From Justusliebigvirus alia, in sequence record OZ035799.1: a stretch of DNA of 64,000 nt; one strand, written 5' to 3'. Shown here piece after piece: positions 1 through 36,953 of the stretch. The notes beneath the pieces are model-generated. The model saw only the letters and a program-made list of their open reading frames with translations, was not told where the DNA came from and made no database searches. The stretch's first letter is position 1, and each line of letters begins with the position of its first letter. The translations under genes and the position numbers were made by a program.

Positions 1-907
1 AACCGTCAACTTGAGTTTCCCAAGTGCCATGAATATTTCGGAACAATGTTGTTACACCTTTTGGTTCATTAATAATGATTGCCATAACAAGTTTAGGATC
101 GATAACAGACATAATCTTTTCCTCAATACCCTCTGTAATAACATTATTGCGCACAATATTAATTGCATCTTCTTGTACAGTAAGAGCACTTACGTTCTTA
201 AGAGTATATACCTGCTGCGTAGTGTAAATGATACGAACATAACTTACAGAACGAGTAGGCACAGGTTTACGCGGTCGGCGAAAACGTGGTTTTGGTGAAG
301 ATTCAGTCTTACTTTCATTTTTTGAATAATACTCCTCAAACAGTTTAGTAAATGTTTTTACATCAACTACAAACCGATCTTTCCTATATGGAGAATTCTT
401 ATGTGCACCATTAATACCACTGTTTTCATCGAAGAAAGTAATGTTTTCTTCAGTTGAATACATTAGATAATGATCTGCATTTTTCCAATGTGGTTGTGGA
501 CAATGAGGATTACAAACGGAAAGCAAGTAATTAATATTTTCTTCCGTGGCCTCAGTATCCAGGAAGCACGTATTATGCACAGTCAGTTGTACTTTTTCAG
601 CCATATCTTTTTCTTTATCCTCTTTAGCAAGATATTCAGTACGAATAATCTCCAGAAAACCTTCAGGTGTTACTTCCATAAATTTATATTCAGGATGAAG
701 CTCCATATATTCAAATCCACAACCATCTAATTGCTGTAGGAAGTTAGGGTAGAAGAACAAATCATTAACACTGTGAATCAGATCATTGATTTCTGCTTCA
801 GTTGTGTAACCAAAACTCTTGTGAATTGCTTCGTTAAGAATATGCAGGATACCCATCTCTTCTGCTGCTTTTTTAACTTCCAGTTTATTAGCGTAAAATG
901 CAATCAT
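1..907 (-). CDS. hypothetical protein (partial; 3' end lies beyond window start)
   Basis: Open minus-strand frame from ATG at 907-905 (MIAFYANKLEVKK...) running to position 1 without stop; not in ORF track because it has no stop in window; no recognisable motif. Confidence 0.4.
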   Translation of the reverse strand, partial: MIAFYANKLEVKKAAEEMGILHILNEAIHKSFGYTTEAEINDLIHSVNDLFFYPNFLQQLDGCGFEYMELHPEYKFMEVTPEGFLEIIRTEYLAKEDKEKDMAEKVQLTVHNTCFLDTEATEENINYLLSVCNPHCPQPHWKNADHYLMYSTEENITFFDENSGINGAHKNSPYRKDRFVVDVKTFTKLFEEYYSKNESKTESSPKPRFRRPRKPVPTRSVSYVRIIYTTQQVYTLKNVSALTVQEDAINIVRNNVITEGIEEKIMSVIDPKLVMAIIINEPKGVTTLFRNIHGTWETQVDG

Positions 908-2346: not shown

Positions 2347-4977
2347 TCAATATCTGCCAGCGCCAAATACACCAAGTTTAATACCATTGATCGGTAAAGT
2401 GGTGCTTGTTGGTACTTTCTCTGTTGCAACACGGTTGATATCTATAATCTCCTGTACGGTTGTATTCCATTGTAAGCATTTAACACAACGGGTGTGCGCT
2501 ACATACAGTAGGTTTCGCTCTGCCTCTTCTAGTCCTACCCATTCACCAGTCTTTTTATCATAGTTGGAAGGAAAATCATTAGCAACAATAACCTGATCCC
2601 ACTCCAAACCTTTAGACTTGTGTGCTGTAGTCAGTGTGACTTTTGCTGTAGGGGAATTTCTATGCGTTCTAAGTGTATGTGCTATAGTGTTTGCCTTACC
2701 AGAAACTACGATGTTTAACAAGCGTTTAGCATCTGGATCAGCCTCTGCACACTCAACAAATTCATCCCAGTCTGCATAAGGTAATACAGTTTCATGTTTT
2801 ACTTTCTCAATATCTCCTCTCCGAAGAGCATTAACACTATCTACCATAGAGATAAAATCCCTGGTATCTACGTTAATAATAATTTCTTCCCCATCTGCAA
2901 TACGATCCATTGCCTCCATAAGCAAGGTTAAATTCTTGCGAAAGATGATAGTGTAAGGTTTTGTATAGTCTACAACATCTGATTTGTAGCTACCTACTAC
3001 AGTATCAAAGCCTTTACCAACCAAAGGATGACGCAAAGGTTCTTTATCACTTAAAATCATATTGGCAATGTTTGCCACTTTGGGGCCAAAACGGAAGCAA
3101 GCAGTTAATGGAAGCTCTGCCCCATACTTAGCTGTTTCAATCATCATATTAGAGCTACCTCTAAATTGATAAATACAGTTGTGGCTAAGAATTTCATTGC
3201 CAAAGAAGTTAGCAGTATCCTCTACTTCAATATCATAGTAGATACCCTCACTATCTACAATATCCACAATCTCTTCTGCTGTTACAGTATCACCATCTTT
3301 TACCAACACAGACATGCCTTTAAACAAACCCGCTGCCGGAATTAAGTTATATTTGGCAGTGTCTACAGAGGACATGCATTCTTTTAAAGATGCAAACGGA
3401 ACTATTTCAAGGATCTTTTGTGCAAAACTCAATGCTTCACAATAAGAATTGAAATATTTACGTACACGGTAACGACCTTCCAATTTAGCAACACTTACGC
3501 TTACACCTGCTTTAATGAGTGAAGCATAGATCGGCATTTCACTTTCTGTCCACTCAAAACTGACTTGTGTTCCTTTACAACCTTGTGCTCGCAAAGTCAC
3601 TGTTAACATTTTTCTTTCATCTACTGCACAATTGATGCTGTGCCAATGTGGATAAGCAAAATGATAGTCTTTATCCTCTAAAAGTTTAAAACCATTCTGT
3701 CCGAATTGTTCAAAGATGTTATTGATCCTTTCTTGATTAATGCCGCGTGAACTTGCTTCAAATACACAAGTAGGAATGCCATATTGTAAACTGTATGCCA
3801 TTTCTTTTTCCATAGCAGCTTCGCGATTTTCAACAATGTCCAACACCCATAATTTCTGTGCTTTTTCAGAACGTGTACGTTGCCCCAGTTTAGAAAAACC
3901 TTCTTTATCATCGAATTTGTTAGTGATCCCTACTCGGAAACCTAAATCTTTCCTCCACATTAGGTATACCACCATCTGGTCATCTTTCAGAACATAGGAT
4001 GAAGCCCAAATACGATGGTTATGTGTCATATCTAAAGTTTTACCTGTAGCAGTAATAATATTCCTACCTTTTGTACGTGTAGATAAAGTCTTATTTGTTA
4101 CTTTTCTAAATGTAACTTTACCATTAGAATAAGACTCTACCTTATCACCGATTTGCAGGTCTTTCATTGTAACCTGACCATTCTCGGTGTTAAGTACCGT
4201 GTTTTCCGACACACATTGGAATTCATCGCCAACTACCACAATTTGTTTTGCAGATTTAGCATTTCGCAGAATAGACAAGAATGCAGGGTTAACATCCTGG
4301 AATTCATCACCAAAAATAATATCATAACCAAGATCAGCACCAGATAATTCAAACAATTTTACATAGGTGTCATGCGTCATCAAAGTATCTGTGTTAGGAT
4401 CGATGCGCTCTCGCCACAATTGTTTTGCATACTTAACTACTTCTGTAATTAGTTTGTGTTCGTTAATACCTTTTCTTTTAATATCTGCAAGATGTACACC
4501 AGGAAAATGTTTACGGCTGATAAAAGGATCATCCGAAAATTCAAACTTACCTACGGTTTGCTTGATCATTAAACCAATCATAGCACGAGTTAAAAGTGTT
4601 TTCCCTCGTTTATCAATAAGATTATTAATCTTAAATTTCTTTGCTATCTCGCTACCTGTACCTGCAACGTTAACATACTGTCCTTCTGGTCGTGACAGTT
4701 TTGCACGTAAACGATGATCCAGGAATTGATAGCAAATAGAATGCAATGTACGGCATTCTACATTTAGTGGCATCTTACGTCGTGCTTCTTCTGCCATGCT
4801 TTTATTGAAAGCTAAGTAAAGAATGCGATCTTCTGTACTGTTAGCCAGCAAATAAAGTGTTGACGTTTTGCCTGATCCAGATTTAGCTTGGATAGTTAAA
4901 AAGCGATGGTCTGGAAAAGCCTCCTTAATAGCTGTTTGCTCTTCTGTTGGAGTGAAGCTCAACTCTTTCTTAGCCAT
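2347..4977 (-). CDS. SF1 (UvrD/PcrA-like) DNA helicase, intein-containing precursor
   Basis: Walker A AKSGSGKTST, motif II GDEFQD, motif III split as VVVGDEFQ / CIYQFRGSS by an inserted intein; start chosen at MAKKELSF (ATG 4977) directly after the upstream stop. Confidence 0.75.
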   Translation of the reverse strand: MAKKELSFTPTEEQTAIKEAFPDHRFLTIQAKSGSGKTSTLYLLANSTEDRILYLAFNKSMAEEARRKMPLNVECRTLHSICYQFLDHRLRAKLSRPEGQYVNVAGTGSEIAKKFKINNLIDKRGKTLLTRAMIGLMIKQTVGKFEFSDDPFISRKHFPGVHLADIKRKGINEHKLITEVVKYAKQLWRERIDPNTDTLMTHDTYVKLFELSGADLGYDIIFGDEFQDVNPAFLSILRNAKSAKQIVVVGDEFQCVSENTVLNTENGQVTMKDLQIGDKVESYSNGKVTFRKVTNKTLSTRTKGRNIITATGKTLDMTHNHRIWASSYVLKDDQMVVYLMWRKDLGFRVGITNKFDDKEGFSKLGQRTRSEKAQKLWVLDIVENREAAMEKEMAYSLQYGIPTCVFEASSRGINQERINNIFEQFGQNGFKLLEDKDYHFAYPHWHSINCAVDERKMLTVTLRAQGCKGTQVSFEWTESEMPIYASLIKAGVSVSVAKLEGRYRVRKYFNSYCEALSFAQKILEIVPFASLKECMSSVDTAKYNLIPAAGLFKGMSVLVKDGDTVTAEEIVDIVDSEGIYYDIEVEDTANFFGNEILSHNCIYQFRGSSNMMIETAKYGAELPLTACFRFGPKVANIANMILSDKEPLRHPLVGKGFDTVVGSYKSDVVDYTKPYTIIFRKNLTLLMEAMDRIADGEEIIINVDTRDFISMVDSVNALRRGDIEKVKHETVLPYADWDEFVECAEADPDAKRLLNIVVSGKANTIAHTLRTHRNSPTAKVTLTTAHKSKGLEWDQVIVANDFPSNYDKKTGEWVGLEEAERNLLYVAHTRCVKCLQWNTTVQEIIDINRVATEKVPTSTTLPINGIKLGVFGAGRY
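3178..4215 (-). other. intein (about 346 aa) inserted in helicase motif III
   Basis: Block A CVSENTVL at insertion start, block B MTHNHRIW, C-terminal blocks YDIEVEDTANFFGNEILSHN followed by +1 Cys; flanking exteins rejoin to GDEFQ-CIYQFRG. Confidence 0.75.
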
Positions 4978-8432: not shown

Positions 8433-8699
8433 CTAATTACTGTTAGATCTGTATTCTGTCTTCCATTCACAATGGTAAACTTCAACAGGTTCTAACTTCC
8501 AATGTTCAGGAACTAGTTCAGGACAATATCTACAAAAGAGAAATAGATAGATAACTAAGACAGGTATTAAATAGTAAAATGGTATACGATCATAACCATA
8601 CTTACGAGATAACATGTAGACATATAGATAGGGTATAACAATTAATCCTATAACTATAAGTAAGAAGAGAAGTATAAACCTTAGTGTAGTAACATCCAT
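8433..8699 (-). CDS. putative membrane protein
   Basis: 88 aa; hydrophobic segments FILLFLLIVIGLIVIPYLYVYML and YYLIPVLVIYLFLF; GGAG SD. Confidence 0.5.
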   Translation of the reverse strand: MDVTTLRFILLFLLIVIGLIVIPYLYVYMLSRKYGYDRIPFYYLIPVLVIYLFLFCRYCPELVPEHWKLEPVEVYHCEWKTEYRSNSN

Positions 8700-8730
8700 A
8701 GTATTCTCCTATACAGTAATATACTCTGTT

Positions 8731-8760
8731 CCTGCCCCTCCATGAGTGACAGGAACAATA
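8731..8760. repeat. inverted repeat / stem-loop in intergenic region
   Basis: tgttcctg ... caggaaca arms separated by about 12 nt. Confidence 0.4.
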
Positions 8761-8778
8761 TCTATAGAGAATACTAAC

Positions 8779-8830
8779 TCGCTTCGCTCGTCACCTTTCA
8801 GGTTTAGGGTAGCATGTTTTTCTGAAAAAG
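8779..8830 (+). promoter_or_regulatory. conserved intergenic motif (copy 1): CTCGCTNCGCTCG ... TTAGGGTAGCATGTTTTTC-NN-GAAAAAG
   Basis: Near-identical to motif at 36622-36672; contains TTTTTC/GAAAAA inverted repeat. Confidence 0.4.
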
Positions 8831-8863
8831 TCAATACTCTCCACAAAACTTTACAAAATACTT

Positions 8864-9136
8864 TTACATAGGTACAACAGAGTCTGTTTTGAAGTCGTAC
8901 ATATGATTTACACCTGTGATTTTTGACATAGAGATTGCACGTTTAGCACCTGCAATTACCTGGTCTGTCTTCTTAATCTCTTCACGGAACTTACGTACAG
9001 TTAAAGAGAAGAAACGATGATCCATCCATTGACGATTCACACGATCACGCTTGAAGTGACGGAAATCTTCAATCTGTTTATTGCGCAATCGGCGCAGTAC
9101 ATGCAATAGTTGATAGTAAGGGTGTTTATTTTTCAT
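8864..9136 (-). CDS. hypothetical protein
   Basis: 90 aa basic ORF with GGAGAATAA SD. Confidence 0.5.
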   Translation of the reverse strand: MKNKHPYYQLLHVLRRLRNKQIEDFRHFKRDRVNRQWMDHRFFSLTVRKFREEIKKTDQVIAGAKRAISMSKITGVNHMYDFKTDSVVPM

Positions 9137-17209: not shown

Positions 17210-17267
17210 TTGACAACGTTTTTTAATCTGATAAGATGTATCACATAGGGCGGCAATAGTGCCGCTC
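17210..17267 (+). promoter_or_regulatory. promoter + 5' GC hairpin cassette
   Basis: TTGACA (17210-17215), spacer, CACATA, hairpin GGGCGGCAATAGTGCCGCTC (17248-17267), then AGAGAGA SD and ATG 17290. Confidence 0.5.
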
Positions 17268-17289
17268 ATAACAGAAGAGAGAAATAATC

Positions 17290-17562
17290 ATGGCATCATA
17301 TAGCGCATCAATGATTGTAATGGGTATCACTGGTAAACCTATGCGCGGTGGCGGATCTTTCGCTAACATCAATATTGATGGACGTTTATCCCTGGACGCA
17401 GCGATCACAGTGGCACGGGAAACGTTTAAAAAAGAATGTAATTTCAATAAACAAGATTATCTCGGCTTCGTTATTGAAAAAACCGCGCGCTTTGTTGATT
17501 ATAAAAGCCCGAAAATGATCGACACTACACTAAAGGCGCAAGATGTAGCTTTTTTGCTTTAA
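17290..17562 (+). CDS. hypothetical protein
   Basis: 90 aa ORF behind cassette. Confidence 0.5.
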   Translation: MASYSASMIVMGITGKPMRGGGSFANINIDGRLSLDAAITVARETFKKECNFNKQDYLGFVIEKTARFVDYKSPKMIDTTLKAQDVAFLL

Positions 17563-17570
17563 GGCTTGAC

Positions 17571-17625
17571 ACTGAAAAATAATTTGGTAATATATACCAC
17601 ATAAGGCGGGAAATGGTTTCCCGCC
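17571..17625 (+). promoter_or_regulatory. promoter + 5' GC hairpin cassette
   Basis: TTGACA ... TATATACCACATAA ... hairpin GGCGGGAAATGGTTTCCCGCC (17605-17625). Confidence 0.5.
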
Positions 17626-17647
17626 AAATCAAAGAAAGGGTAACACA

Positions 17648-18010
17648 ATGAGCAAGCAAATCAATACTATCATGTTAAACCTGGTATCTTTCCGTGATGA
17701 CGTGAAAAATCTTTCGCGTGATGCAGTGGATGCACGGATCGAAAGCTATCGCACACAGATCGCAACATTACCGTTAAAACGTGATCAACATGCCGCTAAT
17801 ATGATGCTTGATGCTATGATTAAAAAGATGATTCAGTGTGATCTTACCCTGGCTTATGAATATGCTGGCGATCTCTTTGTAACGTATAATAAGCCCGTTC
17901 CAGGTATGAGCACCACGGAAGAATTGCATGCCTTAAATCTGCGACAAGATGCATGGGATAACATGCGCCGTGTTATGGTATGGGCCGAAAGCGGTAAAAT
18001 TTACGAATAA
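17648..18010 (+). CDS. hypothetical protein
   Basis: 120 aa ORF behind cassette. Confidence 0.5.
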   Translation: MSKQINTIMLNLVSFRDDVKNLSRDAVDARIESYRTQIATLPLKRDQHAANMMLDAMIKKMIQCDLTLAYEYAGDLFVTYNKPVPGMSTTEELHALNLRQDAWDNMRRVMVWAESGKIYE

Positions 18011-18017
18011 AAACGGT

Positions 18018-18070
18018 TGACATTGCACGAAAACCTGATAAGCTATCTTAAAGCGGGAATAGTTCCCGCT
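18018..18070 (+). promoter_or_regulatory. promoter + 5' GC hairpin cassette
   Basis: TTGACA then hairpin AGCGGGAATAGTTCCCGCT (18052-18070). Confidence 0.5.
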
Positions 18071-18088
18071 TACATAGGATAAAACTTT

Positions 18089-18235
18089 ATGAAACAATAT
18101 GTAATGAGTATTCACACCAAAAACGGCGCTACTGTTACGACTCCGGCACGGTTTGCACTTGTAAACCGTTGCAAGAGACTAAAACGAGAGCTAAAAAATA
18201 ACCGTGCAACCGGTTTTAAACGCTGGGGAGGATAA
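18089..18235 (+). CDS. hypothetical small basic protein
   Basis: 48 aa (MKQYVMSIHTKNGATVTTPARFALVNRCKRLKRELKNNRATGFKRWGG); not in track. Confidence 0.35.
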   Translation: MKQYVMSIHTKNGATVTTPARFALVNRCKRLKRELKNNRATGFKRWGG

Positions 18236-18237
18236 TC

Positions 18238-18498
18238 TTGTTTTTTCTAAAAGTTTTTGATAATGTGATCGCTTTTGAACATGCTACGACGTTCGACCTG
18301 GCGAGATACGCTATCAGGTTTAAAGATAATGTTTATCCCCGTGCTGGCGGCGGTTACACTATTTTTAATCATCGTAATGCGCAACTAACAGATATAACGA
18401 ATCCAGATCCTGGAGTGTATCGCATAGGCTGGCTACCGTCAAAAGACGCTGCAAGCATGTTTAAGGTATGTAAACTACTAACAGAAGAGGCGAACTAA
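18238..18498 (+). CDS. hypothetical protein (TTG start)
   Basis: Track ORF begins at TTG 18238 preceded by GGGGAGGA SD. Confidence 0.4.
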   Translation: MFFLKVFDNVIAFEHATTFDLARYAIRFKDNVYPRAGGGYTIFNHRNAQLTDITNPDPGVYRIGWLPSKDAASMFKVCKLLTEEAN

Positions 18499-18499
18499 C

Positions 18500-19054
18500 A
18501 TGGGGCGTGAATATGTGATCCAGTCCTGGGTAAAGCATGATGCTAATGATCCGCGCATAATACCAGATGACATGATCGATCACATGGTAGGGTATAGCGG
18601 GGAGCAGATAGGAAATCGAGCGGCAAAGAGCAACGGCAACACCAGGACGCGATCCGTTCGCCCTGGATGGCTGGCGAATGGTAACGCTGACATTGCAAGC
18701 GCCGCAGATCCAAGCGATGACGCTAAAAATAATCCCTTATACAGCATTGATCCGGCTTTTAAGGTGTTGGAAGAGTATCCCGCTAAATTAGCCGCACTAG
18801 ATAAGGCATACGAAGAAAAGCGCATGGCATGGACTGTATACAACACCGCTAAAATGGTGCTAGATGCAAAATTGATTAAAGCCCAGGAGAAGATCAATAA
18901 ACTTGTTGCAGTAGCGCAAGAGGAAGACCAGGGCGACCAGGAGGAAGAGGAAGAAATCATGCCTACCCTGGAAGAGGAAGAGATCCAGCCATACATGCCG
19001 ACGGAAGAGGAAAAAAGACAAGCCTTAAAAAATTATGAAAATTGCATTGTGTAA
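18500..19054 (+). CDS. hypothetical protein with acidic C-terminal tail
   Basis: 184 aa; C-terminus EEDQGDQEEEEEIMPTLEEEEIQPYMPTEEE. Confidence 0.5.
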   Translation: MGREYVIQSWVKHDANDPRIIPDDMIDHMVGYSGEQIGNRAAKSNGNTRTRSVRPGWLANGNADIASAADPSDDAKNNPLYSIDPAFKVLEEYPAKLAALDKAYEEKRMAWTVYNTAKMVLDAKLIKAQEKINKLVAVAQEEDQGDQEEEEEIMPTLEEEEIQPYMPTEEEKRQALKNYENCIV

Positions 19055-19133
19055 GGCTTGACATATGCAAACAAGCCCCGTAATATATACCACATAGAGC
19101 GGGGCAACGCCTCAAAGGTGAAATAAAAATCAC

Positions 19134-19161
19134 TTGACACCTGAAATCAGTAAGCTATAAT
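19134..19161 (+). promoter_or_regulatory. sigma70-type promoter (consensus -35/-10)
   Basis: TTGACA (19134-19139), 16-nt spacer, TATAAT (19156-19161); drives ORF at 19199. Confidence 0.5.
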
Positions 19162-19198
19162 GCTTATATAGATTGAAACATTACTAAGGAATAAAAGC

Positions 19199-19378
19199 AT
19201 GGCTATTATTGCAAAGACTGAGATCGTAGGTTTAGATTCTATCATCCTGGCATATGAGGAAGCTATAGAAATGTATGTGGTTTCCTATGGTGATTATATC
19301 CGTGAATATAAATTTATTGATCTAGCTTTTGAATGTTATATTCACCAGGTCAATAAAGCCTATGATGATTATCGTTAA
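19199..19378 (+). CDS. hypothetical small protein
   Basis: 59 aa (MAIIAKTEIVGLDSIILAYEEAIEMYVVSYGDYIREYKFIDLAFECYIHQVNKAYDDYR); AAGGAATAA SD. Confidence 0.4.
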   Translation: MAIIAKTEIVGLDSIILAYEEAIEMYVVSYGDYIREYKFIDLAFECYIHQVNKAYDDYR

Positions 19379-19473
19379 AAGTTTTAGTCTTGTGCTATTG
19401 ACAACGAACGATAGTACAAGCATAATAACTTTTATCGGGAATACTCCTAACTAATCAAAAGAGATTAAAGACT

Positions 19474-19839
19474 ATGGCTAAAAATATCAATGTTTCTGCT
19501 TATGCTACCCTGGCTAACACTGCTAAAATTGAACTATCCAGCATTGAAGCGGTACATATTAGCGCCCGTCGCTGGTTTCAAAAGTCTTATGGTAATACTT
19601 ATTTCTCTTTGATGGTTGACGTTGAGATCGGCGGTAAACTGATTGAAGTCGTTAACGTTCCGTTTCATTATGGTTATGGTGATCATTTTGATACCGTTGC
19701 CCTGGAAGAGTTTAGCAAGGTTATCAACCTGGAAGGTAAAGACTTTTCAAATTATGCTTACCTTTCCCGTTTTTGCCGTGACAATGGGATCGCTGTATAC
19801 AGTCATGCAAGCGATGTTAAACGTAAAAAAGATTTATAA
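19474..19839 (+). CDS. hypothetical protein
   Basis: 121 aa ORF. Confidence 0.5.
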   Translation: MAKNINVSAYATLANTAKIELSSIEAVHISARRWFQKSYGNTYFSLMVDVEIGGKLIEVVNVPFHYGYGDHFDTVALEEFSKVINLEGKDFSNYAYLSRFCRDNGIAVYSHASDVKRKKDL

Positions 19840-19849
19840 AAAGCATTGA

Positions 19850-19904
19850 CAGCACGAATAAAAAGCATATAATACTTATATCGAGAGCGGGAATAGTTCC
19901 CGCC
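19850..19904 (+). promoter_or_regulatory. promoter + 5' GC hairpin cassette
   Basis: TTGACA-16-TATAAT then hairpin AGCGGGAATAGTTCCCGCC (19886-19904). Confidence 0.5.
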
Positions 19905-19927
19905 TCACTGAAAAAGAGATTAACATC

Positions 19928-20167
19928 ATGGCTAAATCTAAAATGTACAACGGTCACAAAAACAAAACTCATTGGAATGTAAGCCTTTGGATTAATAACG
20001 ATGAATCGTTATACTTATACGCTGTAGGTTTAATAAATGAGTGTGGTAATAAAGATAAAGCGGCGGATCTAATGTGCTACAGATTAAAACAGGACGGAAT
20101 CACTCATACACCTGATGGTTTCAAGTATAGTAAAACTGCAATCCGTGCCGCTATGGTTGGAATGTAA
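19928..20167 (+). CDS. hypothetical protein
   Basis: 79 aa ORF behind cassette. Confidence 0.5.
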   Translation: MAKSKMYNGHKNKTHWNVSLWINNDESLYLYAVGLINECGNKDKAADLMCYRLKQDGITHTPDGFKYSKTAIRAAMVGM

Positions 20168-20180
20168 AGGAGACATAAAA

Positions 20181-20261
20181 ATGAAACATCGTTCGACCTA
20201 TCTCACAAAACGTTTTAGCTTAGATCATAAATTGGGCTATTACGGAAGAAATAGAAAATAA
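20181..20261 (+). CDS. hypothetical very small protein
   Basis: 26 aa ORF with strong AAAGGAGA SD; speculative. Confidence 0.25.
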   Translation: MKHRSTYLTKRFSLDHKLGYYGRNRK

Positions 20262-20262
20262 T

Positions 20263-20322
20263 TTGACACTGTTTAAAATTCTGGTATAGTTTATCACATA
20301 GGGCGGGAAATGGTTTCCCGCC
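20263..20322 (+). promoter_or_regulatory. promoter + 5' GC hairpin cassette
   Basis: TTGACA (20263-20268), TATAGT (20285-20290), hairpin GGGCGGGAAATGGTTTCCCGCC (20301-20322). Confidence 0.5.
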
Positions 20323-20344
20323 AAATCAAAGAAAGGTTATCATT

Positions 20345-20572
20345 ATGGCTATCGTTATTGTTCGCGTATCCGGTACGGTTGGAATCTCTCAGGTAGTAGC
20401 AGTTATCACAGAGAAGAAAGGGGATGATCTTCACTCCTCCTTGAATAGCTGGGCGGTCGCTAACTTTGGGCAATGGTCGAGCGTTGAGTACATCGAAGCC
20501 TACCAGGTGCCAACGATTAGCCTAACCGATCTGAATGTTGATCGCTTGTTGTGCCTGGATCAATTAAATTAA
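20345..20572 (+). CDS. hypothetical protein
   Basis: 75 aa ORF behind cassette. Confidence 0.5.
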   Translation: MAIVIVRVSGTVGISQVVAVITEKKGDDLHSSLNSWAVANFGQWSSVEYIEAYQVPTISLTDLNVDRLLCLDQLN

Positions 20573-20580
20573 AAATAATA

Positions 20581-20638
20581 TTGACAAGATAACTAAAATC
20601 AGTAAAATGTAATGCATAGGGCGGCAATAGTGCCGCTC
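20581..20638 (+). promoter_or_regulatory. promoter + 5' GC hairpin cassette
   Basis: TTGACA (20581-20586), hairpin GGGCGGCAATAGTGCCGCTC (20619-20638). Confidence 0.5.
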
Positions 20639-20659
20639 CTAGTGAGAGAGATTATCAAA

Positions 20660-20875
20660 ATGACTAATATCCGCACCTTGTTAAAAAATGCAAAGCAAGT
20701 TTTATTTTCAGATGACGAATATTTTAATAAAGATATTACAGGCGTGAAAAATTTAAAAGACGTGAAGGATGTTATCGGTATCCGTGGATCTTTACGTAAA
20801 GGTGACATATACGGTAACAAGGTGCAATATAAACTGTCAAAAGATTATGATTTTACTTTGACATTTATTTCATAA
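20660..20875 (+). CDS. hypothetical protein
   Basis: Start at MTNIRTLLKNAKQ (ATG 20660) after hairpin; the longer track ORF would begin inside the hairpin. Confidence 0.5.
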   Translation: MTNIRTLLKNAKQVLFSDDEYFNKDITGVKNLKDVKDVIGIRGSLRKGDIYGNKVQYKLSKDYDFTLTFIS

Positions 20876-20920
20876 AACCGCTTGCAATACTGCAAAAATA
20901 AAGTAAACTGTACTCATCAA

Positions 20921-20942
20921 GGCGGTGGAATAGCCCACCGCC
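20921..20942 (+). promoter_or_regulatory. 5' GC hairpin (variant)
   Basis: GGCGGTGGAATAGCCCACCGCC; compensatory stem changes relative to other copies. Confidence 0.45.
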
Positions 20943-20965
20943 TAACAAAGAGAAGAGGAAACATC

Positions 20966-21136
20966 ATGATCACTTTCGCTACCCGTGAAGCCGCTCGCAA
21001 CGTTGCACGTAAAGTTAACGCCGCCAACCTGGGCGCTACGCTTAAAGCCCCGGTAAAAGATGAATCAGGTAAATGGATCTTCCCTGGTCTGCGTCACGCT
21101 GATAAGCTGGGAACGTTAACGCTAAAAAATAAATAA
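20966..21136 (+). CDS. hypothetical protein
   Basis: 56 aa (MITFATREAARNVARKVNAANLG...), GAGGAAACATC-ATG. Confidence 0.45.
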   Translation: MITFATREAARNVARKVNAANLGATLKAPVKDESGKWIFPGLRHADKLGTLTLKNK

Positions 21137-21181
21137 AATCCGCTTGACAGTAGCATCATTTATAAGTAAAGTAACAACAAC

Positions 21182-21202
21182 GGCGGGAAATGGTTTCCCG
21201 CC
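21182..21202 (+). promoter_or_regulatory. 5' GC hairpin
   Basis: GGCGGGAAATGGTTTCCCGCC after TTGACA at about 21143. Confidence 0.5.
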
Positions 21203-21222
21203 ATCAATAAAGAGATAAGATC

Positions 21223-21582
21223 ATGAAATCAGTAAAAGCAATTAAAACTTACATTGTGTCGGCTATTTCTTTTGATGGTACTACAACCGAAAAAGAAAAG
21301 ATCACCGAACTGATGCGCCGTTTTAACTCTGAATACTGGTATCCCGATAATCAAAAACGTTACAATTATAACGTGATCAAGGCGATAGCCTCATGGTTAC
21401 AAGGTTTACCGTCAGAAATCAATATTGCTTTTGATTATAACGAGATCGATCACTTGTTAATTGAATGGAAGTACATAAAAGAAACAAGCAAAGAAACAAC
21501 CGTTACCCGTGAGCGGGAAAATTATTGGTTATATATTGCAAGCATGATCGTAATCCTGGCAAAACAGCATAACGTGGCGTAA
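21223..21582 (+). CDS. hypothetical protein
   Basis: 119 aa ORF. Confidence 0.5.
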   Translation: MKSVKAIKTYIVSAISFDGTTTEKEKITELMRRFNSEYWYPDNQKRYNYNVIKAIASWLQGLPSEINIAFDYNEIDHLLIEWKYIKETSKETTVTRERENYWLYIASMIVILAKQHNVA

Positions 21583-21597
21583 TTAAGAGGAAGAAAC

Positions 21598-21735
21598 ATG
21601 AACGCATCACAGCAGATCGAAAAATTCAACCGCAGCAAGGCGCGTAAAGATTGGAACGAAGAGATCACCAAAAAAGGCGACAAGCGGAACAAAACAAAGA
21701 GAGATCGCAGCACAAAAAGATACTGGAACGAATAA
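21598..21735 (+). CDS. hypothetical small basic protein
   Basis: 45 aa, Lys/Arg-rich; AAGAGGAAGAAAC SD; not in track. Confidence 0.4.
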   Translation: MNASQQIEKFNRSKARKDWNEEITKKGDKRNKTKRDRSTKRYWNE

Positions 21736-21740
21736 CAAAA

Positions 21741-21766
21741 AAGGGCGCAATAAGCGCCCTTTTAGC
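21741..21766 (+). terminator. rho-independent terminator
   Basis: GGGCGCAATAAGCGCCC hairpin + TTTTAG; same hairpin family at 25952 and 27124. Confidence 0.6.
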
Positions 21767-21853
21767 TTATATAGAGGCTTGTTACCCATAGGCAATGGTA
21801 ATGCCAGGATAAGCCTATAAACCACGTTAGACAGCTTTACAGGAGCTTTAAAA

Positions 21854-22036
21854 ATGAAATTAGAAGAAATAAGCAAGGCACTAGCCCAGGGGCAAAGGTT
21901 AAACGCCCGTTATCGTGATCAATATGGCTTCATAACCAGCGGCGTGATCCTGGGGATTGAAGGCAATAAGATTTTTATTGACACGTTGAAAAACGTTGTA
22001 TATAGTGACAATATAATCTCAATAAAACATATATGA
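21854..22036 (+). CDS. hypothetical protein
   Basis: 60 aa ORF. Confidence 0.4.
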   Translation: MKLEEISKALAQGQRLNARYRDQYGFITSGVILGIEGNKIFIDTLKNVVYSDNIISIKHI

Positions 22037-22044
22037 GGCAAGAA

Positions 22045-22446
22045 ATGAAAAAATTATTGATCGCTGGTTTAATCTCTTTTGGCATGGTTGGAACATCTAG
22101 CGCGGCGATATCCTCCACAGTAGCAGAATTAAGCGCCGTTGATGCAATGGAAAACGTCATGCTTATTAATAATGCGATCCCCGATGAAATCATGGAGGAT
22201 TCACACATGATCGCTTATGGTGCTGTTACACAACTAACGGCAAAAATAGATAAATCTATTGTTAATGGCTTAAATGAAGATGTACCATGTGAAATTATTA
22301 CCAGTGTGCTCACTACTCAAAATTTTACGCCGTGGTTAAAAAGTATTCAAAAAGTACACAGTACAGCCGCAGATCGTAGCAATGAAAAACTAGTGTCAGC
22401 ACTTGCAACGTATACCCTAGCAAAATGTACCGAGATAAAAGATTGA
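22045..22446 (+). CDS. putative secreted/periplasmic protein
   Basis: N-terminal MKKLLIAGLISFGMVGTSSAA signal-peptide-like segment. Confidence 0.5.
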   Translation: MKKLLIAGLISFGMVGTSSAAISSTVAELSAVDAMENVMLINNAIPDEIMEDSHMIAYGAVTQLTAKIDKSIVNGLNEDVPCEIITSVLTTQNFTPWLKSIQKVHSTAADRSNEKLVSALATYTLAKCTEIKD

Positions 22447-22493
22447 CAATATAGAAAGCACGTTATAAGATACACACAACAAAGGAGAACTAC

Positions 22494-22796
22494 ATGAACG
22501 GCATAGCTAAAACGTTTTTTCTTTTTTCTGGTGTAAATGATCCATCAATAAAAGTCGATAGTGTAAAAGAAAACAATACTATCACAGCTAAATTGTCTCA
22601 AGATGAAACAAATAACGTGCTAATCATTAATCTTAAAGAAATAACAAAAGGTTATTACACTATTGCTTACCATGCGATCTATAATGCTGGTACTAGTGAG
22701 GAAGTGCAAACAAGCAACAACGAAAGCGCGGCGCTACCTGGTGATCTGGTGCTGGGCGTTATCAGTTTAATTGTCAATGATTTTTTTAAGGAGTAA
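22494..22796 (+). CDS. hypothetical protein
   Basis: 100 aa ORF; TTGACA promoter-like sequence at 22443. Confidence 0.45.
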   Translation: MNGIAKTFFLFSGVNDPSIKVDSVKENNTITAKLSQDETNNVLIINLKEITKGYYTIAYHAIYNAGTSEEVQTSNNESAALPGDLVLGVISLIVNDFFKE

Positions 22797-22800
22797 AACC

Positions 22801-22896
22801 ATGCCCTATTTACATTTATTTTTCGGTATCTTATTGACAGGATCTTTTTTCTTCTGTATGCTTGTTTCTATTGTAAACCACGTTTTAAGACATTAA
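22801..22896 (+). CDS. hypothetical small membrane peptide
   Basis: 31 aa (MPYLHLFFGILLTGSFFFCMLVSIVNHVLRH); not in track. Confidence 0.3.
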   Translation: MPYLHLFFGILLTGSFFFCMLVSIVNHVLRH

Positions 22897-22905
22897 GGAA
22901 ACAGC

Positions 22906-23025
22906 ATGAAAATTATTCCCGTACAGTATAGCGTAATAAATCCAGCATATGAGGAAGGAAGGAAAACAAGCATGGCTTTATGTTGTATTGCTACTATAGC
23001 CATGTTATTATATATTGTGTTTTAA
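22906..23025 (+). CDS. hypothetical small membrane peptide
   Basis: 39 aa with C-terminal hydrophobic stretch ALCCIATIAMLLYIVF. Confidence 0.3.
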   Translation: MKIIPVQYSVINPAYEEGRKTSMALCCIATIAMLLYIVF

Positions 23026-23119
23026 TAGGTTTTATAGTTGTACGCTTTAAAGGCTTGACAATTTTTTGTTATGCTTTAAAATATATCTTGAAAACGGCAA
23101 AGGCCGCAAACAAAAGGGT

Positions 23120-23449
23120 AAAATTATGAAATCTGTGATCGGTGTTTATTTGGATAACTCTGATTTTTTCTATCATCGTGCGCGTTTCCTTGATGCGATT
23201 GAAATGATAGAATCAGGCTTTAAAGAGTATCGCCTTGCACATGATGACCTGGAAGCATTACAGGGCAATAGTGTTTTTACATTGCAAGCTAAAGCACTAT
23301 GCAAAAGCCGGATCGACATTGCAAGCAAAAAGATAGAACGCGGCATGTCCTGGTTGCGCACCGCAGAAATCAACATGGGGCAATGGTACGGCGAAAACTT
23401 AGAAAATAAACACACTTTTGTAAATGTAGAAAATATTAAAGATTATTGA
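23120..23449 (+). CDS. hypothetical protein
   Basis: Start at MKSVIGVYLD with AAAGGGTAAAA SD. Confidence 0.5.
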   Translation, partial: KIMKSVIGVYLDNSDFFYHRARFLDAIEMIESGFKEYRLAHDDLEALQGNSVFTLQAKALCKSRIDIASKKIERGMSWLRTAEINMGQWYGENLENKHTFVNVENIKDY

Positions 23450-23450
23450 T

Positions 23451-23502
23451 TGACAGCACACCTGATAAGTAATATATTGTATCTCATAGAGCGGGGAAAT
23501 GG
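23451..23502 (+). promoter_or_regulatory. promoter + 5' GC hairpin cassette
   Basis: TTGACA (23451), TATATT, hairpin GCGGGGAAATGGTTTCCCCGC (23481-23501). Confidence 0.5.
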
Positions 23503-23531
23503 TTTCCCCGCCTTAACAGAAGAGATAAGAT

Positions 23532-23816
23532 ATGAAGATCACAAAAGCACTTTCCAACTATGCAGCACGTCGCGGCTTATGCTTAACCGTTGAAAACTTA
23601 GGGAAAGAAGATTTTTTGTGCTTTTGGGAGCTTGAGAATGATAATGAGTGGATCTTCTCTTATTCTATCTGCAAAGATCAAAATGGTTGCTTGTTAACAT
23701 GGCGAGGTAATATCTATTTACCGGAAGAAATAAAACAAGAATTACCAGGCACGATCATGACTGAGAAACAGCTTAAGGAAGTGATCAATTTTGTAGGGCA
23801 AAACATTAAAAAATAA
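23532..23816 (+). CDS. hypothetical protein
   Basis: 94 aa ORF behind cassette. Confidence 0.5.
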   Translation: MKITKALSNYAARRGLCLTVENLGKEDFLCFWELENDNEWIFSYSICKDQNGCLLTWRGNIYLPEEIKQELPGTIMTEKQLKEVINFVGQNIKK

Positions 23817-23817
23817 T

Positions 23818-23877
23818 TTGACAGTAGGCAAACAACGTAGTAAAGTTTATCACATAGGGCGGGAAATGGTTTCCCGC
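23818..23877 (+). promoter_or_regulatory. promoter + 5' GC hairpin cassette
   Basis: TTGACA (23818), hairpin GGGCGGGAAATGGTTTCCCGC (23857-23877). Confidence 0.5.
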
Positions 23878-23900
23878 TCACAACAAAAGAGAAACAAATC

Positions 23901-24071
23901 ATGATCCCGACTATGTTTTACGTATCGCGCAAAGGTCACAATATTTTTTGGTCTGAAGATTTAAATGAAGCCATGACGTTTGCCCGTGATCGTGTTGCTA
24001 TCGGTGGCGTTAATATTACCGTAACCGATGAAAACGGCATTGAATACTACAACGGCGACGATGAAGAGTAA
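23901..24071 (+). CDS. hypothetical protein
   Basis: 56 aa (MIPTMFYVSRKGHNIFWSEDLNEAMTF...); not in track. Confidence 0.4.
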   Translation: MIPTMFYVSRKGHNIFWSEDLNEAMTFARDRVAIGGVNITVTDENGIEYYNGDDEE

Positions 24072-24078
24072 TTAATAA

Positions 24079-24100
24079 GGCGGGGGGAGTATTCCCCGCC
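24079..24100 (+). promoter_or_regulatory. 5' GC hairpin without upstream -35 box
   Basis: GGCGGGGGGAGTATTCCCCGCC starts 8 nt after the preceding stop codon; no TTGACA upstream. Confidence 0.45.
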
Positions 24101-24119
24101 ATCAATAAAGAGATAAATC

Positions 24120-24389
24120 ATGAAAATATCATTGGACGTTGCAATCAAGGCCATCGAATCCGGTTACACCCTGGTAAAAGATGATAAGGCTAAAATAGTG
24201 CATCATGTTAACAAGGAAACAGGCGAAAGCATGATCACATATAAAGCCGCCTACTTTCTCCAATCAGTAGCAGATCCGCGCGTACAGCGCCAGGTCACGG
24301 CGGCTATTGCTAAAAAATTATGTGCTTTACAGGGCACAAGTTTTAACGAGATCCCGCCGTGTTTTGACTGGTCGAGCTTGAAAAAATAG
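24120..24389 (+). CDS. hypothetical protein
   Basis: 89 aa ORF. Confidence 0.5.
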   Translation: MKISLDVAIKAIESGYTLVKDDKAKIVHHVNKETGESMITYKAAYFLQSVADPRVQRQVTAAIAKKLCALQGTSFNEIPPCFDWSSLKK

Positions 24390-24391
24390 TT

Positions 24392-24448
24392 TGACAAAAA
24401 TTATAAATCGGGTAGAATGTATTTCGTAGGGCGGCAATAGTGCCGCTC
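24392..24448 (+). promoter_or_regulatory. promoter + 5' GC hairpin cassette
   Basis: TTGACA (24392), hairpin GGGCGGCAATAGTGCCGCTC (24429-24448). Confidence 0.5.
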
Positions 24449-24469
24449 GCAACTAAAAGAGAAATCATC

Positions 24470-24664
24470 ATGGCGCTTAAAAAACTAACAAGCAATACTC
24501 GTTGGGATGAAATCGACGGGGAAGTATACATTTTCGCCCGTAAACCAGGTGATCAAAAATGGTCAAAGGCTTTTACTTGTCACCCTGCAACAATAGATCT
24601 AATAAAAAGTAAAGGTTTACGTGAAGCAGTAGCGAGAAGTTTACTGATTCCTTGTAAAAAATAG
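24470..24664 (+). CDS. hypothetical protein
   Basis: Start at MALKKLTSNTRW (ATG 24470) after hairpin. Confidence 0.45.
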   Translation: MALKKLTSNTRWDEIDGEVYIFARKPGDQKWSKAFTCHPATIDLIKSKGLREAVARSLLIPCKK

Positions 24665-24727
24665 TTTGACAATATGCGGTTATCTGGTAAAGTGTACCAC
24701 GTAGGGCGGGGCAATAAGGCAACGCCC
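24665..24727 (+). promoter_or_regulatory. promoter + 5' GC hairpin cassette (variant)
   Basis: TTGACA (24665), hairpin GGGCGGGGCAATAAGGCAACGCCC (24704-24727). Confidence 0.45.
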
Positions 24728-24745
24728 ACTAATGAGGGTAAAATC

Positions 24746-24850
24746 ATGTTAGAGAAAATTTTCACGGTTGTAATAGTGGGCCTGGCGTTATCGGTTGGAG
24801 TGATTGCAACTATGGCTAACATGATCCTATCTTCCCACGGTATTGGATAA
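24746..24850 (+). CDS. hypothetical small membrane peptide
   Basis: 34 aa (MLEKIFTVVIVGLALSVGVIATMANMILSSHGIG); not in track. Confidence 0.3.
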   Translation: MLEKIFTVVIVGLALSVGVIATMANMILSSHGIG

Positions 24851-24860
24851 GGTGAATCAA

Positions 24861-25076
24861 ATGATCACGAATAAGACAGGTAAAACGGAATTTTTACGCG
24901 GCTTGCAAATAGGTAAACCTGAGATCTGGCATTGCACTAAAAGACCACGTGACGAAATGAAAGATTTCACCGCTACTTTACAACGTGTTAAAATATCTAT
25001 CACACAGAAAAAAGCCTTGTTAGTAGTAGAAAACGAGATCCCGCAAACCATTATTATTGTCGAGCGTACAGCATGA
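24861..25076 (+). CDS. hypothetical protein
   Basis: First ATG (MITNKTGKTE) of a track ORF whose listed start is TTG. Confidence 0.45.
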   Translation: MITNKTGKTEFLRGLQIGKPEIWHCTKRPRDEMKDFTATLQRVKISITQKKALLVVENEIPQTIIIVERTA

Positions 25077-25459
25077 AAACTGAAATCATTAACGAAATGA
25101 TCAACGGCTATAAAGAAGCCTTTATTTTTGCCGAACCAGCGACGGATCACAATGGGGAATATATTGAGAATCTAGACGATTATGATTTTTCTCCTAGCGC
25201 CCTGAAACGTATTACCAGCGATGTGACCGCCTTTTGTAGTGCCAATGTTGCCGCTATCTCTGAGGCAATGAGCGACGGCGCAACAGCAAACCAGATCGGG
25301 AATGACTTACATTTCACCCGTAACGGTCACGGCGTAGGCTTTTGGGATCGCCCTGAAATATACACTACTAACACCGCCAACCGCCTAACAAATGCAGCTA
25401 AATTAATGCCATCGGTGCATGCTTACATTGGTGAAGATAATTTGATTTATATTGAATAA
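25073..25459 (+). CDS. hypothetical protein
   Basis: 128 aa ORF, ATGA overlap with previous gene. Confidence 0.5.
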   Translation: MKTEIINEMINGYKEAFIFAEPATDHNGEYIENLDDYDFSPSALKRITSDVTAFCSANVAAISEAMSDGATANQIGNDLHFTRNGHGVGFWDRPEIYTTNTANRLTNAAKLMPSVHAYIGEDNLIYIE

Positions 25460-25465
25460 AAGTAT

Positions 25466-36046: not shown

Positions 36047-36271
36047 ATGAAGTCTGTAAACAAGTTGCAACAATTTTTGTTATCAACAGCAATCTTTTTG
36101 CTTTTGTTAATTGGTATTCTGTATGGTGCATCTAATTTGTACAATCTACATAATGATGTAGAACAGAACAAAGAGAAGTGCATCATTCTAAAACACAATA
36201 AACAAGCAGAAGATTTCTTAAAGAATAAGTGTTACAACTACATTGATTATGAGGAGACAAACAATGATTAA
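36047..36271 (+). CDS. hypothetical membrane-anchored protein, paralog family C (copy 2)
   Basis: TM helix then KEKCIILKHNKQAEDFLKNKCYNY; AAGGAGGG SD. Confidence 0.45.
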   Translation: MKSVNKLQQFLLSTAIFLLLLIGILYGASNLYNLHNDVEQNKEKCIILKHNKQAEDFLKNKCYNYIDYEETNND

Positions 36272-36506
36272 AGAATTAGGTATGCGAGTATACAGTGAGT
36301 GGACTCCAAGCAATGGCCCAGGAGTTGTTGCAGCTAAATGTATCAATGGTCGTATTGAGTACCTGGAAGGGTATGAAGATAATGAAGAGTTAGTAGATTA
36401 TGCTAAATCTTTTATTGAAGATGATACAGACTTTATTGTATTATATGATACAGGAGAGTTAGAGTATGGATATGATGGAGATGGGGATATCTTTGAACTT
36501 CAATAA
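36264..36506 (+). CDS. hypothetical protein
   Basis: Start at MIKELGMRVY with GAGGAGACAAAC SD (track start is TTG). Confidence 0.45.
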   Translation: MIKELGMRVYSEWTPSNGPGVVAAKCINGRIEYLEGYEDNEELVDYAKSFIEDDTDFIVLYDTGELEYGYDGDGDIFELQ

Positions 36507-36507
36507 G

Positions 36508-36553
36508 AGTAGTAAGTAAGATATAAAGAGTAGTAAGTAAGATATAAAGAGTA
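36508..36553. repeat. tandem direct repeat, 21 bp x 2
   Basis: gagtagtaagtaagatataaa repeated back to back. Confidence 0.5.
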
Positions 36554-36621
36554 TATAGTTAGTTATAGAGTTAGTAACATTACATATACTCTTTCCATGT
36601 ATAACATGGAATATTCTCTAC

Positions 36622-36672
36622 CTCGCTATCGCTCGGTATATAAGATTAGGGTAGCATGTTTTTCACGAAAAG
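36622..36672 (+). promoter_or_regulatory. conserved intergenic motif (copy 2)
   Basis: CTCGCTATCGCTCG ... TTAGGGTAGCATGTTTTTCACGAAAAG; about 65 nt upstream of ORF 36735. Confidence 0.4.
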
Positions 36673-36734
36673 TAAAACTGTTTATACCGATTGATAGCAG
36701 GTTTTTAATAGATTCTATCTATGAGGAGTAGAAA

Positions 36735-36953
36735 GTGTACAAATTATATAAAGGAAAAGATAAGTTTACGGGTAATACATCTGGTTTCTATGTAACACCA
36801 CGTGGTGTTGCTGTATTTGATTGGATTCCTGGTACTCCAGATCGTGAAATGATCTCTCTTGTAAAACTGTCGGAACAAGAATATACTTATGGTGACATTA
36901 CAACATTCTATTCTCGTGCAGAAAATCCAAAACTGATCGCGGAGTGGGAATAA
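36735..36953 (+). CDS. hypothetical protein (GTG start)
   Basis: GAGGAG SD 7 nt before GTG 36735. Confidence 0.4.
   Translation: MYKLYKGKDKFTGNTSGFYVTPRGVAVFDWIPGTPDREMISLVKLSEQEYTYGDITTFYSRAENPKLIAEWE

Follow-up and report, generated by a model that had tools for sequence, protein, structure and literature searches.

The closest described counterparts of the element reported here are early phage promoters with a stem-loop a few nucleotides downstream. Promoter-early stem-loop (PeSL) cassettes were reportedly described for T4-type phages by Arbiol et al. in 2010, and 5′-terminal stem-loops of the ompA type are said to stabilise mRNAs, a finding attributed to Emory et al. in 1992. To our knowledge, neither the organisation of early transcription nor the replication starts of phi92/rV5-like phages are known from experiment. 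We analysed a stretch of 64,000 nucleotides (the window) from Justusliebigvirus alia (sequence record OZ035799.1), a phi92-like myovirus of the subfamily Stephanstirmvirinae. Here we describe a repeated intergenic element which, on the minus strand of the window, resembles a promoter followed by a small hairpin with an invariant core. By direct comparison, the window equals positions 64001-128000 of OZ035770.1 (148,442 bp), with 100% identity at both sites of the element; positions below refer to the window unless the genome is named.

A second line of comparison leads to DNA structure. An "extraordinarily stable mini-hairpin" of DNA has the consensus GCGNAGC / GCGNNAGC, N being any base (PMC13037366), and the centre of the hairpin in our cassette, GCGN(N)AGC, fits this consensus.

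Three copies of a promoter-like element with a covarying hairpin

A preliminary description of the window had pointed to a 50-bp element present at 8.8 and 36.6 kb, with CTCGCT-N-CGCTCG as one of its blocks. The repeat itself is borne out. The 19-mer TTAGGGTAGCATGTTTTTC is found exactly at 8804-8822 and 36646-36664 (+ strand) with no third match in the window at up to three mismatches; 0.03 would be expected by chance and none of 100 shuffles contained two matches. The extent was set too short, similarity between the copies reaching about 70 nt, and the block holds as worded for copy 1 (CTCGCT-T-CGCTCG at 8778-8790), the core spacer of copy 2 being two nucleotides instead of one (CTCGCT-AT-CGCTCG at 36622-36635). 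Between this core and TAGGGTA there are 14 nt (copy 1) or 11 nt (copy 2). A search of the full genome for further copies had been set beforehand as a check. We ran a covariance model built from 20 relatives over the whole 148-kb genome and obtained a third copy (Table 1), contrary to the refuting case of no further copies; the next-best match has 16 bits (E = 0.23), so that a genome has exactly three copies. Conservation extends to Justusliebigvirus, Phapecoctavirus, Klebsiella phages and Citrobacter phage Tr1, and indeed across the Stephanstirmvirinae representatives examined.

Homologues from phAPEC8, IMG/VR contigs of 148-153 kb, the Klebsiella phages and Tr1 were aligned and 22 non-identical members were tabulated. 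On its reverse strand the element reads TTGAC(T/A), 17-18 nt, TG-n, TACCCT-A. The -35 is TTGAC[TA] in 19 of the 22 members; copy 1 has TTGACT, copy 2 TTTACT (TTGACT in its Phapecoctavirus homologues) and copy 3 TTGACA. All 22 members have a -35/-10 spacer of 17 or 18 nt, the sequence of which is variable, and all have TG at -15/-14 together with TACCCT. A pyrimidine-purine step lies 6-7 nt past the -10 in about 19 of 22, judged by eye from the aligned spacers. None of the search patterns that found the members contained the -35, the spacer length or the TG. Judged from these sequences, the conserved blocks have the anatomy of a host sigma-70 extended -10 promoter, the odd trait being an invariant GC-rich -10: TACCCT agrees with TAnnnT at the three key positions and matches TATAAT at three of six. 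The C at -13 and the C at -8 resemble preferences of the stationary-phase sigma factor. The earlier proposal of a promoter for a phage-modified polymerase is thus probably right as to the promoter, and has to be revised as to the strand, which would be minus, and the polymerase, which would be that of the host. The nicking or recombination site suggested beside it is possible, the sequence speaking neither for nor against it.

The invariant core, C-GA-GCG-N(N)-AGC-GA-G, is 13-14 nt long and lies 9-16 nt past the -10, its first base 3-10 nt past the predicted transcription start. N(N) is A, C, AT, AA, GG or TA in the tabulated members. The three bases flanking the core on each side are complementary in nearly all members, with differing sequences; the closing stem is found as TACC/GGTA, TGAC/GUUA, UUAC/GUAG, GUGCC/GGUAU and UUAAC/GUUAA. 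In a 16-sequence alignment 94.8% of the cells are paired, compared with 81.6 +/- 3.0 in shuffles. The covariation score of the same alignment is 0.419 against 0.182 in shuffles, with 0 of 500 shuffles reaching it, a shuffle figure which overstates independence because the aligned sequences are related paralogues and orthologues; slid controls are free of this problem and score 0.16 or less. One pair varies between C-G (9), A-U (5) and U-A (1). G.T/G.U wobbles occupy 10 of the 48 variable cells of the closing stem, and the G.U pairs, like the tandem G.A pairs, are available in promoter sense (on the minus strand) alone. For copies 1 and 2 RNAfold returns ((((..((...))..)))), the same fold as the covarying stem; the copy-2 hairpin has -7.9 kcal/mol (z = -4.56).

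A coding explanation, with the overlapping open reading frames (ORFs) 8709-8846 (-) and 8746-8871 (+) and phAPEC8_0059 as candidates, was rejected because length differences of 1-2 nt occur inside the conserved blocks (core and spacer). Tiny ORFs in the copy-2 transcripts are not conserved. Several deposited genomes carry small ORFs over the element as hypothetical proteins, and in the annotated records examined we saw no feature at the copy-1 or copy-2 site beyond, in some, such a small hypothetical ORF. Rfam gave no gathering-score match in the whole window and noise alone around both copies at E up to 10; ARAGORN reported 0 tRNA or tmRNA genes over the window. In the literature on transcriptomes of phi92-like phages, and with the motif as a search string, no description of the element was found, the string matches to the core being ColE1-derived vector sequences throughout. 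The element is real, non-random and conserved across the phage subfamily, and we found no published description of it. It occurs in three copies, has a promoter-like anatomy on the minus strand and contains a covarying hairpin with an invariant core.

Table 1. Positions of the three copies, their parts and further features named in the text
Feature	Position	Strand	Basis or remark
Copy 1	window 8772-8843 (genome 72.8 kb)	-	covariance model, 71.5 bits
Copy 1, -35 TTGACT	8829..8834	-	sequence
Copy 1, extended -10 TGC TACCCT, 17 nt past -35	8806..8814	-	sequence
Copy 1, predicted start, G = 7th nt past -10, pyrimidine before	8799	-	inferred from sequence
Copy 1, hairpin UGAC / GA / GC-GAA-GC / GA / GUUA	8775..8793	-	RNAfold, covariation
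Copy 1, core CGAGCGAAGCGAG	reverse complement of 8778-8790	-	sequence
Copy 1, predicted long leader hairpin pairing the AGGAGA ribosome-binding site	8701..8774	-	folding prediction
Gene downstream of copy 1, 88-aa hydrophobic protein, ~100 nt away	8433..8699	-	ORF
Copy 2	window 36616-36685 (genome 100.6 kb)	-	covariance model, 69.8 bits
Copy 2, -35 TTTACT	36671..36676	-	sequence
Copy 2, extended -10 TGC TACCCT, 17 nt past -35	36648..36656	-	sequence
Copy 2, predicted start, A = 7th nt past -10	36641	-	inferred from sequence
Copy 2, hairpin UACC / GA / GC-GAUA-GC / GA / GGUA	36619..36638	-	RNAfold, covariation
Copy 2, core CGAGCGATAGCGAG	reverse complement of 36622-36635	-	sequence
Copy 2, two further predicted leader hairpins (36594-36610, 36547-36593)	36547..36611	-	folding prediction
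Copy 3	genome 140215-140287, outside window	opposite to the other two	covariance model, 63.4 bits
Pure A+T tract with internal repeats AATTAAATAATAAATTAAATAATAAAT	genome 140380-140445		between copy 3 and gene-proximal promoter
Twelve other promoters with hairpins, starts	17210, 17566, 18017, 19846, 20263, 20581, 21144, 23450, 23818, 24391, 24666, 25465	+	
Island cassette region, Citrobacter sp. OP27	about 3100-4123 of stretch examined from CP191518.1	-	

The proposed leader hairpin and its genomic setting

We suggest that the element is a cassette of a promoter plus a 5′-leader hairpin, read on the minus strand of the window, and give this reading about an even chance of being correct. E. coli RNA polymerase would initiate near 8799 and near 36641 in leftward direction, and near genome position 140260 in rightward direction. 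The first 25 or so nucleotides of each transcript would then fold into a stem of 4 bp, tandem sheared G.A pairs, two G-C pairs and a loop of the type GNA or GNNA. Placed at the 5′ end or close to it, this hairpin would be a leader element; it could shield the RNA from 5′-end-dependent decay, or it could be a fixed recognition site for a factor which controls the structured leaders behind it.

The RNA-leader reading of the three cassettes is preferred mainly because twelve other early promoters carry a downstream hairpin too. In a genome-wide listing of TTGAC[AT]-16..18-TAnnnT sites we found, at 17210-25465 (+) of the window, twelve sigma-70-like promoters (TTGACA, 16-18 nt, TAnnnT) with a GC-rich stem-loop about 10 nt past the -10, for example GGCGGGAAAtggTTTCCCGCC and GGGCGGCAatagTGCCGCTC, of -14 to -17 kcal/mol. 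These promoter-hairpin cassettes are a second, more numerous cassette family in the early region, and the usual layout of this phage thus seems to pair an early promoter with a 5′ hairpin.

From GC skew and ORFs the genome is divided into strand blocks, minus at 37-75.5 kb, plus at 75.5-104 kb, minus at 104-140.3 kb and plus from 140.4 kb. Several remarks of the preliminary description on the surroundings agree with the ORFs and the sequence. The genes flanking copy 1 are on the minus strand (8433-8699 and 8864-9136) and those flanking copy 2 on the plus strand (36243-36506 and 36735-36953); the second copy, said to be about 65 nt upstream of an ORF, lies 63 nt from it; and the 21-bp tandem duplication beside this copy is perfect (AAGAGTAGTAAGTAAGATATA twice, 36505-36546) and is situated just past the predicted copy-2 transcript. 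Other Justusliebigvirus genomes are 21 nt shorter over an 801-nt query around copy 2, which is consistent with a single repeat copy in them, the position of the gap not having been read off.

Copy 1 is co-oriented with its minus-strand neighbours and sits in a gap of 164 nt. It would drive the gene of a small membrane protein, the ribosome-binding site of which is predicted to be buried in the leader. The leader of 99 nt folds with -32.9 kcal/mol (z = -4.65; 0 of 200 shuffles as stable). A related IMG/VR contig has the same layout from cassette to gene, with a visibly similar N-terminus of the protein, and in the Klebsiella-phage homologues of copy 1 a corresponding long hairpin and then UUUUCUUUU precede the gene. 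The 88-aa protein gave no Pfam match.

Copy 2 would yield an antisense or non-coding RNA of about 100 nt without an ORF. A small RNA, which had been among the earlier suggestions, is possible from this copy, on the minus strand. The predicted transcript of 111 nt contains three hairpins (z = -3.46). A terminator-like site at 36593-36611 (+) is at the same time the first of the two further copy-2 hairpins and suits the upstream plus-strand gene. At the end of the predicted RNA there is no convincing intrinsic terminator in any genus examined.

Copy 3 lies in a divergent region of 410 bp (phi92 gp106A / gp107, the latter a PRPP synthetase homologue) and would be the distal of two promoters before the PRPP-synthetase and NAD-salvage genes. 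Past it follow about 120 nt, a pure A+T tract of about 60 nt and a second promoter, TTGACT-17-TAGAGT, which adjoins the gene. Copies 1 and 3 and their homologues aim into downstream genes. In the rV5 paper promoters were sought in a divergent region and none was found; that this is the copy-3 region is assumed from the layout alone. For phage inny a 26-bp 'repeat_region' is annotated in the copy-3 intergenic region. The record of inny has one of its ends near copy 2, and that of ALITA has one near copy 3. A Pfam scan of ten neighbouring proteins (the rest of the genome was not scanned) returned no regulator, NusG-like or RNA-binding domain.

Copies in islands and partial likenesses elsewhere

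Most matches in a scan of bacterial genomes with TACCCTA and the core are attributable to chance, in keeping with a pattern of 19 bases; a minority have the whole promoter architecture. In Citrobacter sp. OP27 (CP191518.1), a Scandinavium metagenome-assembled genome (MAG) and three further contigs, the cassette comes after a tyrosine integrase gene (DUF6538 plus Phage_integrase), directly past its stop codon. The DNA into which it aims is non-coding over about 800 nt and contains a direct repeat of about 94 nt and TCTGTTCCTGT-like repeats. Beyond this DNA are a strong promoter (TTGACA-17-TATTAT), two ORFs of unknown function, an endonuclease VII homologue and a DUF5906 protein, presumably of the D5/P4-type primase-helicase family. 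What the Klebsiella phages and the islands have in common is about 42 nt from the -10 to the core (93% identity) and no more; the proteins of island and phage show no homology. Because just these 42 or so nucleotides are shared in the absence of protein homology, the cassette is portable between virulent phages and islands, which may be satellite-like elements. Searches of the island against E. coli complete genomes, in near and distant modes, gave no match. P4 contains no TACCCT-plus-core cassette, and hence there is no likeness to the P4 left operon leader (PLE / CI RNA). Neither the island leader nor the bacterial hairpin elements described below matched an Rfam family.

Some further sequences resemble the element in part. 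From the IMG/VR scan about six unrelated families were left out of the membership, a number which fits chance for a 19-base pattern. Among these families are apparently marine phage contigs (4 plus about 25 more from IMG/VR), which have TACCCTATCCCCCCC(A/T)ACGAGCG(N)AGCGAGTGGG about 137 nt upstream of an ORF of about 500 aa, which by eye resembles the terminase large subunit; at one marine contig end two inverted copies of the motif are found. This motif may be due to chance or may be a distant relative. In at least 11 bacterial contigs from many phyla we observed a hairpin element (C)TGTCATTC-CGAGCGNAGCGAG-GAATCT, and the cassette core is also found at the tip of longer hairpins in repeated elements, such as GTCATTC-core-GAATCT. 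The outer stem of the bacterial hairpin element covaries (ATTC/GAAT, ATCC/GGAT, ATTT/AAAT, ATTG/CAAT). In one Planctomycetaceae MAG a longer hairpin with this core as its cap occurs at least 10 times.

Weighing the readings against known systems

Several points weigh against the reading as promoter plus leader hairpin. The invariance of TACCCTA and the core is partly ascertainment, because every member was found with patterns or BLAST seeds that included either block; the invariance of TACCCTA is not accounted for by this reading. A consensus promoter/terminator scan does not list the element, having missed it because TACCCT matches just three of six positions. Copy 2 opposes the surrounding plus-strand genes and has no conserved ORF, likewise in phAPEC8, an IMG/VR Phapecoctavirus-like contig, the Klebsiella phages and Tr1, and copy 3 and the island copies have a second, gene-proximal promoter downstream. 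For these reasons the cassette is mostly not an immediate mRNA promoter. Further, the core equals a motif which is known for its stability as DNA and which is also found beside the ColE1 origin. Finally, in copies with long spacers a second small hairpin spans the predicted start (for example ACCT-GAA-AGGT, CAC-GAA-GTG or AAAC-nCGAA-GTTT, by eye), and this hairpin, with the predicted start inside it, could form in DNA only.

The foremost alternative is that the promoter just opens the duplex, or forms an R-loop, and that the hairpins, folded on the displaced non-template strand, serve primosome assembly in the manner of the phiX174/ColE1-type sites (n'-pas, ssiA) or the entry of a primase. In that case the phage would replicate from its three cassettes as origins, and the origin of the island would include the copy found there. 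We consider this possible although unlikely. The mini-hairpin has been reported at the priming origins of G4, St-1 and alpha3, at RSF1010 ssiA and at N4 promoters (PMC13037366). ColE1 (NC_001371.1) contains the 13-mer CGAGCGTAGCGAG once, at position 1331 (+), on the RNA II-sense strand and 152 nt past the origin landmark, with a chance expectation of about 0.002. It is identical to the cassette core with a different N, is followed by GGAAGCGGAA and is on the strand which is displaced when leading-strand synthesis begins. ssiA/n'-pas is located in the stretch downstream of the RNA/DNA switch (PMC3167613). Judged from its position, the 13-mer would lie inside the ColE1 ssiA. The RNA II promoter, however, is about 700 nt away from the site in ColE1, compared with 10-25 nt in the cassette. 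pMB1-derived vectors have CGAGCGCAGCGAG at the equivalent place, and GACCGAGCGCAGCGAGTCAGTGAGCGAGGAAGCGGAAG is found just past the origin of pMB1/pUC. The F-G intergenic region of phiX174, the classical n' site, contains AGCGAAGCG and CCGAAGCGG, a partial match.

The setting of the copies in part favours such a DNA signal as well: copy 2 disregards gene orientation, the A+T tract follows copy 3, the island copy opens a repeat-bearing non-coding region beside the DUF5906 gene, and the second hairpin over the predicted start would be confined to DNA. On the other side, copy 1 in its short gap is tightly coupled to a gene and to a leader predicted to sequester the ribosome-binding site, the twelve other promoter-hairpin cassettes resemble ordinary mRNA leaders, wobble pairs as common as in the closing stem fit RNA better, and GC skew tracks the gene strand without an origin signal. 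That the cassette is primarily no mRNA promoter but a transcription-opened single-strand initiation signal, where the host polymerase fires from TTGACT-17-TGnTACCCT, one or two GNA mini-hairpins of the ColE1/phiX174 primosome-assembly type form in the purine-rich non-template strand and replication starts, we consider slightly less probable still. If true, the three copies would be the long-unknown replication origins of the phi92/phAPEC8-like phages, and the cassette-bearing enterobacterial islands would be satellite-like elements that use or mimic the same initiation signal.

Alternatively, the copies could mainly be dispersed homology, that is PeSL-like mobile regulatory cassettes for recombination and module shuffling, in which the hairpin has no special function. 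The cassette is indeed repeated, intergenic and portable, as seen from the short block shared by phage and island. There are, however, just three copies, at conserved positions, and in spite of wholly diverged flanks the 13-nt core is invariant and the stem is kept by compensatory changes across genera and paralogues, which argues for selection on the hairpin itself. This explanation is improbable in our view.

Similarly improbable is a role like that of ops, in which GCGN(N)AGC of the non-template strand would fold on RNA polymerase and recruit a NusG-family or other elongation or antitermination factor through the leaders. In E. coli the ops hairpin reads GCGGTAGC; the opsX of Bacteroides reads YGCGNAGCR (PMC11213015). 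With respect to the predicted promoter the core belongs to the non-template strand, the copy 2-type cores, GCGATAGC, are one base off the ops hairpin, and the long hairpin and UUUUCUUUU of the Klebsiella-phage copy-1 leaders would suit such a factor. Yet of the 12 nt of the full ops, GGCGGTAGnnTG, copy 2 as the best of the copies matches just 9, and loops of three bases are found in the others. The loop G of ops, which is essential for recognition by RfaH, is replaced by A in copy 2. Compared with opsX, GCGNAGC and the 3′ purine are present while the 5′ base is A and not Y, and no cognate UpxY-type factor is known. The ten neighbouring proteins scanned include no NusG-like domain, and a transcription bubble would not accommodate an outer stem as long as the covarying one.

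A plus-strand promoter or plus-strand small RNA, as first proposed, would be in keeping with the plus-strand ORF downstream of copy 2 and the plus-strand terminator-like hairpin which precedes it, but is hardly credible: a promoter is rejected because the conserved blocks are 9-16 nt apart among the relatives and form no -35/-10 pair, and on this strand the G.U and G.A pairs would turn into C.A and C.T mismatches, copy 1 and its homologues would be antisense, and neither strand has an Rfam match.

The cassette offers three precisely placed sites per genome, and its invariant 13-nt hairpin must be read by something, be it RNA polymerase, an RNA-binding factor or the priming machinery. One structural motif links virulent phages, integrative islands of Citrobacter and Scandinavium, and the neighbourhood of the ColE1 origin, a link which bears on a possible general role of the well-studied DNA 'mini-hairpin' in biology. 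If the cassette is a leader hairpin only, our finding is a modest addition to the annotation of phage promoters.

Compared with known systems, the cassette has partial likeness to several. The promoters of the N4 virion RNA polymerase also have a three-base-loop hairpin (GCGGAGC / GCGAAGC) as recognition element; the N4 hairpins, however, are upstream of the start on the template strand, an arrangement which here would give plus-strand transcripts, with copy 1 antisense. With lambda nut boxB and HK022 put the cassette shares a small hairpin with a GNRA-like loop past early promoters, a second hairpin and structured or terminator-like leaders. It differs by having no boxA, no sequence similarity and no identified N-like protein, and by one copy which faces away from genes, so that this is an analogy only. 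In ops/opsX (RfaH, UpxY), too, the non-template strand of a leader region carries a GCGNNAGC or GCGNAGC hairpin; the cassette departs from them by its incomplete match with the ops consensus, its long covarying outer stem and the lack of a known cognate factor.

The likeness to n'-pas/ssiA and the G4-type priming hairpins consists in the same 13-mer in ColE1, AGCGAAGCG in the n' region of phiX174 and the free N position; unlike these, the cassette hairpin is 10-25 nt from a promoter, inside a large double-stranded DNA phage. As in the PeSL and ompA-type systems, an early sigma-70 promoter would be followed within a few nucleotides by a stem-loop, the unit is repeated in gaps between small early genes and, as for PeSL, twelve more cassettes of the general kind are present in the window. 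Unlike in these systems, the phage cassette has an invariant core of 13-14 nt and not just any stable stem, and unlike PeSL it is present in three copies at conserved positions, one of them antisense without an ORF, and is shared with bacterial integrative islands.

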